A stretch of 64,000 nt of DNA from an uncultured Nitrospiraceae bacterium (lineage in GTDB: Bacteria > Nitrospirota > Nitrospiria > Nitrospirales > Nitrospiraceae). A program made the translations under genes and the position numbers. How positions within the stretch are numbered: position 1 is the first letter of the stretch; every line of letters starts with the position of its first letter. Shown here in pieces: positions 33,547 through 38,002 of the stretch. The notes beneath the pieces are model-generated. The model did not search any database, had not been told where the DNA came from, and saw nothing but the letters and a program-made list of their open reading frames with translations. The stretch spans positions 2,528,001 through 2,592,000 of the forward strand of contig CAWJWJ010000002.1 of assembly GCA_963846575.1 (NCBI GenBank). The letters run 5' to 3'.

Positions 33547-34281
33547 ATGATCAACGCTCGCCAGCGATCGTTCTCGCCTCTTCTCAGCCTCGCAATACTA
33601 TCGTGGTGTGTCGGGTGCACTCCGGACGAGTCTCCCTTTCGGCAGGAAAACGAAGGCCTGCGGAAGCAACTCGCCAAACAGGAGTCGGTCATGAACTCGC
33701 TGCAGGACGGCAACAAGGTCATGCAGCAGCAGATCGATCTGCTCAATCAAGAGCTGCGGGATGCCCGGAAACAGGCGGAGCATGCGCAGGCGGAAGCGAA
33801 AGCGCTCGGAACGAAATTGGAATCCCAACTTGCCGAGTCCAAGAAGTTATCAGGAGAAATCCAACGGACCGCGGCCAAGGCGGCCCAGGCCGTAGACAAT
33901 ATTCGTGTCGAGGAGAAGGCCTCGCAGGTGGAAGATCTGCCTCGCCCGTTGGCGGCCGTCGGAAAAGCTGCCGAGGAGGCCCTCGCGCGGAACGGCTACC
34001 ATATCAGGGTCAGCGTCAAGACCGAGCAAAAAGCCGTCTTCGTCACTGAACGTAAAATCTCAACCCCGGCTTCGCTGGAAATGTCGGGGTTCCGTAATCA
34101 GTACGTGGTATCTCTCCACGCGTTGCCGGCCAATGTCACCCGACTGAGCGTCAAGGCAGACTTTGAAAAGTTGGTGCAGGGCGGGCGGGTCTCGCAAGTC
34201 AATGCCGAGGAAACGGCAGACATCGAACGCCGGCTCATTAATGAAATAGGAAAAGCCCTTTCCTCCCCGAGTAAGTTATGA
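33547..34281 (+). CDS. Hypothetical coiled-coil lipoprotein
   Basis: Lipobox CVG-C, heptad repeats; ATGA overlap with the next gene. Confidence 0.7.
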   Translation: MINARQRSFSPLLSLAILSWCVGCTPDESPFRQENEGLRKQLAKQESVMNSLQDGNKVMQQQIDLLNQELRDARKQAEHAQAEAKALGTKLESQLAESKKLSGEIQRTAAKAAQAVDNIRVEEKASQVEDLPRPLAAVGKAAEEALARNGYHIRVSVKTEQKAVFVTERKISTPASLEMSGFRNQYVVSLHALPANVTRLSVKADFEKLVQGGRVSQVNAEETADIERRLINEIGKALSSPSKL

Positions 34282-35216
34282 GGCTGCGGCCTCGGGTCCT
34301 GCCGAGAACGGCATCCCTCATGCGTTGCACGGTCCTCGTTACCCTGCTCCTGGTTTCAGCAGGACACTACACCGCCTTTCCCGCCACCGTACGCGCCCCC
34401 ACGCCGCCCGCCACGCCGGAGTTGGCCGCGCATCTGGCCTCCATCACCGCACTGGCCGTCAGCTCCCCCACCATCCGGATTCCCGCAGGATCGTTCCTGC
34501 TCGGCAGCGTGCGGGTGGATGACGATCCCTATGGGAAGGAAACACAATTCGACGATACCGAGCTGCCGCAACACCGCGTGTGGCTGGATACCTACGAGAT
34601 CGATCGCGACGAAGTCAGCCTCGGCGAATATCTAACCTACCTTCACAAACGCAAACTTCATCCCCCGGTGGAATTGCAAAAACTGATCTGGCACGTCATC
34701 ACCGTCCATTCCGTCGAGGACATGACCTTGGCACAATGGCCGGCCCTCTACGTCACCTGGAAAGAAGCCGACGGCTTCTGTCGCGCACAGGGCAAGCGAC
34801 TACCGACTGAGGCAGAGTGGGAAAAAGCGGCGCGCGGACCGGACGGGAATCTCTACCCCTGGGGACAGCAACTGCCGGACAGTTCGCTGGCCATGTTCGA
34901 TCAACACCATGTGCATGAGATTCCCATCCTCGCTGCCGTCAGCGACGGGGAAGCGGGGAAGAGCTACTACGGCCTGCATCACATGGCGGGTAACGTGGCC
35001 GAATGGGTCAACGACTGGTTCGGCTTCGATTATTACGCCTACATGCCCGAACGCAACCCGCCTGGGCCGACGAGCGGGCGCTACAAAAGTCTCCGTGGAG
35101 GGTCCTGGAAGAGCAAGCGGATCATGTTGAGAACCGCCACCCGCAGCGGCTCGCGGGCGAATCAACGCTCGGCTACGGTGGGGTTTCGTTGCGCCAGGAC
35201 GGTCTCCGCGCACTGA
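34278..35216 (+). CDS. FGE-sulfatase/SUMF1-fold protein, probably non-catalytic
   Basis: P.H.V....F/Y.ID, RLPTEAEWEKAARG, YPWG, GL..MAGNV.EW, RGGSW, GFRCA; FGE catalytic Cys pair absent. Confidence 0.88.
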   Translation: MRLRPRVLPRTASLMRCTVLVTLLLVSAGHYTAFPATVRAPTPPATPELAAHLASITALAVSSPTIRIPAGSFLLGSVRVDDDPYGKETQFDDTELPQHRVWLDTYEIDRDEVSLGEYLTYLHKRKLHPPVELQKLIWHVITVHSVEDMTLAQWPALYVTWKEADGFCRAQGKRLPTEAEWEKAARGPDGNLYPWGQQLPDSSLAMFDQHHVHEIPILAAVSDGEAGKSYYGLHHMAGNVAEWVNDWFGFDYYAYMPERNPPGPTSGRYKSLRGGSWKSKRIMLRTATRSGSRANQRSATVGFRCARTVSAH

Positions 35217-35280
35217 TGGACCATTCCTGCTCGCCAGGCCTTTGGCGAGTGGAGATATGGAGACTCGGGGCGCGTCAGGA

Positions 35281-36405
35281 TCACGCACACCTCATGATGA
35301 CCTCCGACAGAAACGCCATAGATTGCTCTGCCGTTCGAAAGAGTTCCGGAAAGTGAACCAGGAGCTGCTCCTGCAATTCAGGCAGCGTCCGCTCTCCGTT
35401 CAATAAACCCAAGAGAAAATATTCTGCCCGCCCCTGGTCGGACATGCGGGGGGTCGTATCGGGCAGGAGTTTGTGCCGCTGCTCCGGCAGTTGTGCGAAT
35501 CCGTAGAGCGTCGATTGCGCGAAATCCCTGCCATTGGCTTCGATGTGCCAGTTCCAAACCGAGGCATTGTTGTCCATCGACAACGACACTCTGATGCCGG
35601 TTCCCCGCTGAACGAAGACAGGCGTTTCAATAGGAAAGAAGGCCAGTCCCCAGTGAGATTCTTCCGAAGGTGCGTTGGTCAAGGAAAGCCCCGGCAAGAG
35701 GTCGGCCACGAACCAGCCCGCGAGACCGTGCAACCATCCTCGTCTGCCTGCGAAGTAGGAGGCTCGGTATTCGAAATCAGCGCGGTCGGCCTGCGGAAGC
35801 AGCACCTTCTGGACTTGCCGTGGCTCGGACAGGAACGCCTGCTGGTGGAGCTTGAGCGGATGGAGGTTATTGGCGGCATACCGGCGTACCGGAGAATAGT
35901 CGACACCTAAGGGACGATTGGCCCAGAAATCGACCATGTGTTGGTAAAAACCAGGCAGTTCAACGGGAACCATGAAGAGTTCCAATGAATGCGGGATGAT
36001 TTTGCCCGCGGGTTTGAGGAACCGCTCCCTGGCATCAATCACTGAGCCCAACATGCCTTCGTCAAAACCGAACGTGCCGATCGTCTCGGTCAACAGCACG
36101 TCCGTCTTCTCGGGAAGGTCGACACGGAACGACGTGTTGTTGATGAAAACAATACGATCTTGAAAGCCGTTCTGGAGCGCCACCTGCCGGGCGATTTCAA
36201 TGACCTCTTCCGACTCGATCGCGTAGACTTTTCTCGCACCGGCCTGGCAGGCAAAAAAGGAGAGCACTCCCGACCCGCATCCAAGGTCGACGACGACATC
36301 ACCCGGTCGCACCGTTCGAAGAATGGCTTGGCGGTAGCGCTCGACACGAACCTGATCCGTCAGCATGGACAGGTTGTAGTTCACGAAGTCCGTGTATTTC
36401 ATCAC
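35281..36405 (-). CDS. Protein arginine N-methyltransferase-like SAM-dependent methyltransferase with C-terminal PqqD-like helical domain
   Basis: MLTDQVR...Y, VVDLGCGSG, VYAIE, double-E loop TETIGTFGFDE, ARERFLKPAG.IIP, HGLAGWF, SHW loop. Confidence 0.8.
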   Translation of the reverse strand: MMKYTDFVNYNLSMLTDQVRVERYRQAILRTVRPGDVVVDLGCGSGVLSFFACQAGARKVYAIESEEVIEIARQVALQNGFQDRIVFINNTSFRVDLPEKTDVLLTETIGTFGFDEGMLGSVIDARERFLKPAGKIIPHSLELFMVPVELPGFYQHMVDFWANRPLGVDYSPVRRYAANNLHPLKLHQQAFLSEPRQVQKVLLPQADRADFEYRASYFAGRRGWLHGLAGWFVADLLPGLSLTNAPSEESHWGLAFFPIETPVFVQRGTGIRVSLSMDNNASVWNWHIEANGRDFAQSTLYGFAQLPEQRHKLLPDTTPRMSDQGRAEYFLLGLLNGERTLPELQEQLLVHFPELFRTAEQSMAFLSEVIMRCA

Positions 36406-36480
36406 GGTGCACCTCTTTTACCATCAAGAGCTGAAGGTATGAAGCGAGTGCAGGGCGTAAAGAAGCACGAGTTGCGCGGA

Positions 36481-36509
36481 ATCATATGCCGATGAGGGAA
36501 ACGGTGCAA
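36481..36509 (-). promoter_or_regulatory. Sigma70 promoter for the PRMT-like gene
   Basis: TTGCAC-N17-TATGAT on the minus strand; AAGAGG RBS before the start. Confidence 0.55.
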
Positions 36510-36613
36510 GACCCTAGGGCGTTTTCCCGATTATTTCACGGGGTCACCCTGGCGCCTCCGGCAGGCTTTCAAGTTCCACGCCATCATGGCCAATTCCCGT
36601 TGCAGAACAAGGC

Positions 36614-37744
36614 TTATGGCGACTTGGTCGAAGTCGGGTGAGAGGCCACTTCGTGAGAAAACCTCCTGGCCAGGCACATGTCAGCGACGGCCAGGCATTC
36701 CAACCCAAATGGAAGATACCCGGCGTAACCCAGCAGCGGCATATGAAACAATTCAAACCGTTGCACGAAAGGCACCGTATATTCCCAATGAGCAAGACTG
36801 TAGAAATTCCATAGTTCCCAAAAGAATCCACAGATCAGCGCCGCAGGTGCCATGGCCCACAAGAGCCGCCGGCCGGTGGTATCCGTGGCATCAAAAATAG
36901 TCGGGTCACCCCGTATCAGCTGAATCGCGATGATCAGCAGCAGCGGCGCCACCCACACCAGAAAAAACAGATAGTCCGGCCATAGACCGAGTCCCAGCAG
37001 TCCGCCGGCCGCCCCACCCAATAGTCCCCACCCCCACCTCGCGCGATGGTTCAATACAACTGCTGGACCGGACTCGGGCCCCACTGGAATTCGTCGGGAG
37101 GTAGACAGGAGTTCAGCCGTGCCGAGCACGGCCGGCAAAACGGTGGCGAAGGGCAACGTCGCTTGCCACAGGTATTCCCAGGCAGTCAGCTCCTGGCCTC
37201 CCAGATAGTGCCAGTTTTGCACAAATCGATTCAGGTACTCGAAAGACCACCAAAAGGCAGCGCTCAAGGGAAAGAGCGACAGAAAATAGCCGGGACGATG
37301 GCGCATCATGCAACGGCCAATCCGACGACACGTCAGCGCATTCACCACGACAATGTAGCCCAGCCACAGCGGGGTAAATGTCAGGGATTGAACGGAGCGC
37401 ATCCATTCAAACCTGGTCCAGGCCAGTACCCAAGCGAAGAGCGTCCAGACAACCGCCAGCCATCCCCACCAGGGGAATGTGCCCTCTGCCGGTTTTGCAA
37501 GGGTAAAACGAGAGGTGAGACGCGAACGGCTGGCGAGATAGATTCCAATCACGCCGGCGGTCACCAGTGACAGGCACGAGAATGCCAACCAGGAAAATGG
37601 TTCATGAGTAACGGGGTGAGTGATCGGAGGGAACTCGAGATAGGGCTGGGCAGACCGTCCCGCGAGCCAGATGCCAACCAGTGGAAACAGAATGATCGCA
37701 ATCAAGACCAGCACGATGGTCATACTGCGTCTGTGCCGATGCAT
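36614..37744 (-). CDS. Hypothetical polytopic membrane protein (Trp-rich, internally duplicated)
   Basis: About 10 TM segments; repeated motif FWWSFEYLNRFVQNWHY / FFWELWNFYSLAHWEY; start uncertain. Confidence 0.7.
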   Translation of the reverse strand: MHRHRRSMTIVLVLIAIILFPLVGIWLAGRSAQPYLEFPPITHPVTHEPFSWLAFSCLSLVTAGVIGIYLASRSRLTSRFTLAKPAEGTFPWWGWLAVVWTLFAWVLAWTRFEWMRSVQSLTFTPLWLGYIVVVNALTCRRIGRCMMRHRPGYFLSLFPLSAAFWWSFEYLNRFVQNWHYLGGQELTAWEYLWQATLPFATVLPAVLGTAELLSTSRRIPVGPESGPAVVLNHRARWGWGLLGGAAGGLLGLGLWPDYLFFLVWVAPLLLIIAIQLIRGDPTIFDATDTTGRRLLWAMAPAALICGFFWELWNFYSLAHWEYTVPFVQRFELFHMPLLGYAGYLPFGLECLAVADMCLARRFSHEVASHPTSTKSP

Positions 37745-38002
37745 GGAAATTGTTTCACCCTGCGACATGGTCGGACGATTCACCGAAATAGGCGGACGCC
37801 CAGGGGACAGTTTGTCCTCCCCGGACAAGATGCGCGTCGGAACCGTACGTCCCTTCCGTCGATTATTCAAGACTGTGGTTTGTAAATGTATGGAACTTCG
37901 ACGGATCCTGGCCCCGATGATTCGTCTCACATTCCAGGCTCGTTGCTTGAAGAGCAGACGGACGGGCGCTTCGTCTTTGTATCAACGGAAAAAGGAGGTG
38001 GC

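Follow-up and report, generated by a model that had tools for sequence, protein, structure and literature searches.

According to the accessible text of one account of the family (PMC8619983), the core of a protein arginine methyltransferase (PRMT) is formed by a Rossmann fold, a β-barrel and a dimerization arm, and carries motifs I-III, the double-E loop and the THW loop; two methionines (M48 and M155) set asymmetric dimethylation, with a phenylalanine at the first of these positions leading to the symmetric product, and RGG sequences are the usual target of the type I enzymes. Catalytically dead PRMT homologues also exist, and homologues that are dead or remodelled can be told by their missing double-E and THW residues (PMC8226133). 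In bacteria, sister groups of the PRMTs have been identified computationally in secondary-metabolite operons (accessible part of PMC3417536, citing Aravind et al. 2011), and arginine methylation of PhoP is reported in a paper whose title names CheR (PMC8546571), so that bacterial arginine methylation by other enzymes is already in print. The term “PRMT” has 0 occurrences in the available portion of a review on RiPP methyltransferases (PMC11285071), as have “bacteri” and “prokaryot” in that of a 2026 meeting report (PMC13208669). In the literature searched (with few subscription papers and no supplements) we met with no PRMT-fold enzyme from bacteria that had been assayed biochemically, though such an assay may exist. 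On PRMT writers in bacteria, an exact-phrase search of that literature gave a single paper, and its statement is a computational one.

The gene studied here lies in a window (the whole stretch of DNA that was analysed) of 64,000 nucleotides from an uncultured Nitrospiraceae bacterium, and its features are collected in Table 1. A first-pass annotation of this DNA had proposed that the gene encodes a PRMT homologue and not a PrmA-type enzyme, and both the sequence and the predicted structure bear this out. Pfam places PRMT_C (PF22528) on residues 142-282 (43.2 bits, cut-off 27) and PRMT5_C just above its threshold (31.4 bits, cut-off 30.3), and a phmmer search against solved structures matches PRMT2 over residues 9-289 (E 2e-34). 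PRMT2, PRMT6 and CARM1 head the solved matches both in sequence and in fold (TM about 0.7-0.8), the identity to solved PRMTs being 24-30%, and of the best 60 of the 78 solved-structure sequence matches every one but 8rbk bears the name of an arginine methyltransferase. The AlphaFold model (mean pLDDT 91, from a 65-sequence alignment) was submitted to Foldseek, and the matches listed are PRMT6, CARM1, PRMT2 or PRMT3 throughout; the C-terminal β-barrel is recognized both by Pfam and by Foldseek (target TM 0.69-0.85). No NCBIfam model reached its cut-off among the matches listed (25 of 29). The suspicion that automated pipelines could label such proteins PrmA was also well placed, since NCBI calls relatives “50S ribosomal protein L11 methyltransferase”.

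Table 1. Positions, in window coordinates, of the gene, its signals, the encoded protein elements and the insertion site.
Feature	Position	Strand	Remarks
Left flank, gene with FGE-sulfatase domain	34278..35216	+	Conserved in genus; no sign of functional link
Single-gene insertion (approximate extent)	35217..36641		Where two convergent genes meet; ten junctions read out
PRMT-fold methyltransferase gene	35281..36405	-	Start GTG 36405 (374 aa) or next ATG 36402 (373 aa); Pfam, phmmer, AlphaFold, Foldseek
C-terminal three-helix tail	35284..35469	-	About residues 313-374; HTH/winged-helix-like in the model
SHW loop (THW-equivalent) in β-barrel	35650..35658	-	Residues 250-252
Helical dimerization arm	35869..35961	-	About residues 149-179; W161, D169, S171 conserved; alignment and model (helices 151-178)
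Double-E loop (E107, E116, M118)	36052..36087	-	Residues 107-118; aligned to PRMT2/PRMT6
Post-I motif with E64	36214..36228	-	Residues 60-64; alignments
Motif I, SAM-binding glycine loop	36268..36294	-	Residues 38-46; alignments
Shine-Dalgarno-like AAGAGGT	36411..36417	-	Sequence; 5 nt before GTG
Candidate sigma-70 promoter TTGCAC-17-TATGAT	36481..36509	-	8/12 match; looser hand search
Right flank, hydrophobic protein without Pfam match	36614..37930	-	Conserved in genus; start uncertain; no sign of functional link

The series of PRMT motifs read earlier from the sequence is present and in order (the M14-Y24 helix, motif I, post-I, E107/E116, motif III at residues 130-134 and H251-W252), and the Rossmann SAM domain contains motif II as well. 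S250-H251-W252 aligns to the THW loop of PRMT2 and PRMT6, while M14, D17, R20 and E64 are further core residues identified by alignment. Both product-determining positions of PRMT1, M48 and M155, are methionine here (M14 and M118), with no phenylalanine at the former. Among 90 near-clade sequences (partly redundant), E107 and W161 occur in all 90, H251-W252 in 89, E116 in 88 and M14 in 86. Position 118 is isoleucine or leucine in 87/90 near-clade members, and position 11, an asparagine in the window protein, is histidine in 66/90, a divergence that leaves the product type uncertain. The helix αX of the peptide pocket is absent: the protein begins at the αY helix, with the PRMT6 alignment running from residue 4, and the open frame of 378 codons has no room for it, for which reason we do not file the protein as a type I PRMT. 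Neither an N-terminal extension nor a signal peptide is visible in its sequence or model.

Judging from the comparison with two relatives (pN 0.27; pS saturated, at 0.77-0.79), this is a real gene under purifying selection. A promoter and ribosome-binding site of its own had been predicted; the latter stands, as a Shine-Dalgarno-like sequence, whereas the former is at most plausible: the standard sigma-70 scan returned 0 promoters, and the candidate found by hand is a pattern picked post hoc, for which 9 of 1000 shuffles were as good. The gene does not sit in an “accessory patch”, as had been thought, but is a lone insertion of 1.4 kb between two genus-conserved genes, and its GC content is unremarkable (0.566, against 0.585 for the genome). 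A profile search detected the gene in 0 of 38 congeneric species, of which 28 have genomes that are 90% complete or more, and the gene is therefore dispensable in the genus; in 36 of these congeners the site is empty, with the flanks 25-66 bp apart, and for the other two only one flank was listed. Inspection by eye of the two ends of the insertion showed no target-site duplication. The insertion has altered the final codons of both flanking genes, which are convergent and nearly abut in the congeners (35205-35216 and 36614-36656).

With a family of this size, and one already on record, finding a PRMT-fold gene is not in itself surprising. The rarity implied by the first-pass annotation gives way to 812 matching proteins at E≤0.001 (120 of which were listed) and to 357 relatives confirmed in 8 of the 64 parts of the genome collection scanned, besides the published sister groups and the JGI label “protein arginine N-methyltransferase 1” carried by some relatives. 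The best 80 of these 357 relatives, on which the locus analysis is based, come from many phyla. Among the matches listed, the nearest relatives are all bacterial (with the names Nitrospira, Nitrospirota and Nitrospirales), so that the description “eukaryote-type” holds for the fold but not for a recent eukaryotic origin. FastTree gives the clade of the window protein a support of 1.0, both with 153 and with 79 sequences (these trees omit redundant near relatives and one truncated locus, and the family alignment omits L085). Of 251 genomes sampled from the order, 67 gave a match, including 37 of the 38 genomes of one small-genome genus (hereafter g2), where a tail-less form of the gene is near-core and keeps a conserved setting, with an MFS transporter on one side and LysM/coiled-coil genes on the other (eight read out, plus L002). 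The window's own taxonomic family gave 12 matches, and of the 11 read, ten are of the degenerate lasso type discussed below and one is a distant double-E form. At 58 stand-alone loci, the 109 genes closest by are not conserved and point to no common pathway. Small SHOCT-domain genes directly adjoin stand-alone double-E members at 6 of these 58 loci, in several phyla (L009, L028, L032, L035, L064, L073). Additionally, PRMT-like domains lie within NRPS modules in three of five longer matches (P0122, P0124, P0125), and another is found in a 2133-aa open frame of genome G144 (L171).

Based on the pocket residues, we infer on good grounds that the window protein would methylate arginine. By analogy with the eukaryotic enzymes the double-E pocket would bind a guanidinium group, which does not place the arginine in a protein. 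With no partner gene beside the window gene and a near-core relative elsewhere, a cellular target reached in trans is the simplest reading, and we lean towards a protein-arginine N-methyltransferase that is cytoplasmic, depends on SAM and modifies the cell's own proteins in trans. In the mechanism that we propose from eukaryotic PRMT chemistry, the protein would dimerize through the arm and bind SAM in the Rossmann fold, the guanidinium of a peptidyl arginine would be gripped between E107 and E116 and against H251, and methyl transfer would give monomethylarginine and then probably asymmetric dimethylarginine (position 14 is Met rather than Phe, alongside Met118 and His251). The tail could act as an optional substrate-binding module, inherited from a peptide-tailoring branch of the family. 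The targets may be guessed to be Gly/Arg-rich tails, such as those of small RRM RNA-binding proteins, whose methylation would tune RNA binding; we hold this identification of the targets as possible but doubtful. A scan of the own genome for Gly/Arg-rich stretches gave 12 six-frame matches, two of which look real by reading (one an RRM protein, the other a DEAD-box helicase); three of the four RRM matches in this genome were read out, all three with Gly/Arg-rich tails (the RRM proteins lie at C2:746057-746458 and near C2:2523.0 kb and C2:2384.2 kb), and each of the five g2 genomes examined (5/5) has at least one RRM protein with such a tail. These sequences make the RGG-tailed RRM proteins a candidate substrate only. 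A wider proposal, somewhat unlikely in our view, is that in some bacteria a stand-alone PRMT dimethylates the RGG tails of RRM proteins, and that a dimethylarginine-clearing DDAH removes the product in some lineages; if true, a writer-substrate pair thought to be typical of eukaryotes would exist in bacteria, and might predate the eukaryotes.

The alternative that survives best, itself unlikely, is that of an orphaned or trans-acting RiPP/NRPS tailoring enzyme, which would methylate an arginine of a short precursor peptide recognized through the C-terminal tail. The bacterial PRMT relatives of PMC3417536, in the accessible part of that paper, do lie in peptide secondary-metabolite operons, and among our best 80 of 357 relatives, 20 loci have a lasso context (taken as the presence of one or more homologues of a cyclase, an RRE, B2, a kinase or a nucleotidyltransferase), the tail being present in 15 of these 20 and in 6 of the 60 others. 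Nevertheless, the same loci differ in the pocket: both glutamates are kept in 3/20 lasso-context loci and in 59/60 of the others, and 14 of 24 predicted lasso cores (8/14 and 6/10, predicted by a leader motif and the Thr(-2) rule) have no arginine. The glutamate pair thus appears to be lost where the substrates often have no arginine, and is kept in the window protein. Moreover, no RiPP gene was found near the window gene or at its relatives L101, L102, L001, L002 and L104-L111, nor any PqqD/RRE in the five g2 genomes examined (5/5).

In one clade of the degenerate lasso-cluster proteins (L011, L026, L031, L033, L037, L038, L046, L052, L075, L078 and L152-L161), which adjoins kinase-like and nucleotidyltransferase genes, the double-E is replaced by Asp plus Ala, Ser or Tyr and the THW loop by an Arg-rich loop, and the predicted cores are often Met-rich, with a Cys-Leu end and no arginine, which suggests that the methyl mark goes to another residue. 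Another lasso-type locus (L074) has two PRMT-fold matches, the first of which keeps the double-E and HW.

The tail, which the first-pass annotation did not mention, is the part through which a tailoring enzyme would recognize its precursor. In the model, the barrel leads through a linker into three helices (323-334, 341-351 and 359-373), and the tail folded alone gives the same three helices and, unlike an RRE with its three strands and three helices, no β-sheet. It is an HTH-like module that might represent an RRE's helical half. It has no Pfam match, is missing from many near-clade members, and gave no Foldseek match at E≤0.001; a word-based search with it found the window protein only. Two lasso RREs (5v1u and 6jx3) are near the top of its structural matches (Z 4.6, rmsd 2.6-2.9, 52-53 aligned residues), but tied with homeodomains, and at Z 4-5 the tail ties among lasso RREs, PqqD, homeodomains and other winged helices. 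The comparison of its profile with ten RREs from the loci is likewise weak (HHalign probability 4.5%, score 16.9 against at most 13.8 in 30 shuffles), which, like the missing β-sheet and the tie with homeodomains, counts against the tailoring reading. The top Atlas matches of the tail are unnamed, and a PKMT winged-helix cluster at 0.79 is a lead only.

The own genome also contains a cluster with B2-, RRE-, kinase- and nucleotidyltransferase-like genes (C2:648.5-652.4 kb, labelled by tblastn) and a 39-aa candidate precursor (C2:649803-649922) with one core arginine, which would favour peptide tailoring in trans. It lies, however, 1.9 Mb away, and a link to the PRMT-fold gene is not supported: the kinase-like gene of the cluster is found in 28 of the 38 congeners, which lack the window gene. 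This cluster (L180, C2:648535-652375) has no adjacent lasso cyclase and is inserted after purF-like genes. With a lasso cyclase as query, matches of the asparagine-synthetase kind came up at seven places of C2.

Quite unlikely is a small-molecule guanidino methyltransferase, which would convert free arginine or a similar compound to methylarginine in a cycle with DDAH. A DDAH gene (L101:1148-1975, minus strand; E 4e-40 to solved DDAH) stands divergently beside a 61%-identical relative, and in the order sample DDAH occurs in 33 of 44 genomes with a near-clade gene and in 2 of 207 without one (by hand count), but these 33 genomes are largely one lineage, and the own genome gave no match to DDAH. 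In a comparison spanning phyla, 17 of 62 loci with an intact double-E and 5 of 18 degenerate ones had a DDAH, with no enrichment (genome completeness not being known), and we therefore rejected a PRMT-DDAH coupling as a general rule; as an adjoining gene DDAH appears once in about 100 loci. Its presence fits protein methylation too, as it would clear methylarginine freed by proteolysis, and the window protein retains the barrel and arm that bind peptides. Within g2, DDAH occurs in 31 of the 38 genomes.

A SAM-dependent enzyme whose acceptor is Lys, His, Cys or Met, or an inactive passenger, would be in line with the remodelling of the pocket seen within this family, with the absence of αX and with the existence of dead PRMT homologues. 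We regard it as improbable, since the double-E and THW residues that such homologues lose (PMC8226133) are kept in the window clade, and the gene is under purifying selection.

Very improbable, in turn, is an enzyme aimed at foreign proteins, either those of a eukaryotic host or predator or, in defence, those of a phage. The gene is patchy and inserted, it is near-core in a small-genome genus, and the clade relatives include the “Nitrospira sp. SB06xx” bins, which we take to be host-associated. Against this, the N-terminal region shows no extension or signal peptide, PADLOC gave a partial match to the SAM fold only (mad2, residues 23-145), and the search found 0 matches in 50,697 phage records and two distant ones in plasmids. 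A PRMT effector of Legionella was also sought, and was not found in the literature, where the lysine methyltransferase LpDot1 turned up instead. Finally, an ordinary PrmA (L11 lysine methyltransferase), as the database label would have it, deserves next to no credence and is refuted already at the level of the fold, since its Pfam match (37.6 bits, residues 27-106) spans the shared SAM fold only, TIGR00406 is far below its cut-off (34.9 bits against 183.15) and the PRMT barrel is present.

Returning to the preferred reading, a protein-arginine methyltransferase acting on the cell's own proteins, the window protein is, as a candidate, compact, modelled with confidence and complete in its pocket, and nature provides controls in the empty-site congeners, the tail-less core orthologue of g2 and the degenerate lasso-cluster cousins; with these at hand, the question of bacterial PRMT writers becomes directly testable. 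If the protein is confirmed as a PRMT, a widespread PrmA mislabel would be corrected, and the result would bear on the bacterial origin of the eukaryotic PRMTs.

Compared with the systems already described, the window protein shares with PrmA, the usual database label, the class I SAM fold, whereas PrmA itself has no PRMT barrel, arm or double-E. The proteusin Asn N-methyltransferases AerE and PoyE are, likewise, bacterial peptide side-chain N-methyltransferases, and had been considered as the closest known enzymes through a supposed PRMT link that proved wrong: AerE is GenN/PrmC-like and uses a Tyr-Asp pair and a metal (accessible text of PMC9060474), and it is not among the PDB matches of the window protein. 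The bacterial sister groups of PMC3417536, as far as the accessible text goes, are PRMT-domain proteins as well, and NRPS-fused relatives were found here, but those groups belong to secondary-metabolite operons, while members of the window clade stand alone and, in one genus, are near-core. The lasso-cluster proteins have the same fold and usually the tail, with 33-37% identity within the same bacterial family; unlike the window protein, whose double-E and THW loops are not degenerate, they have mostly exchanged the two glutamates for Asp and a non-acidic residue and have no HW, and they sit beside cyclase, RRE and kinase genes, whereas the window gene has no adjacent cyclase, RRE, peptidase, kinase or precursor. 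The closest likeness in the core is to the eukaryotic type I PRMTs (PRMT2, PRMT6, CARM1/PRMT4, PRMT3, PRMT1/Hmt1 and PRMT8), with which it has in common the Rossmann fold, the β-barrel and the dimerization arm, motifs I, post-I, II and III, the double-E spacing, the xHW loop and a methionine at both product-determining positions; it differs from them in its low identity, in having neither αX nor an N-terminal extension and in its additional three-helix tail, and, known here from its sequence and model, it is bacterial, stand-alone and patchy in distribution.
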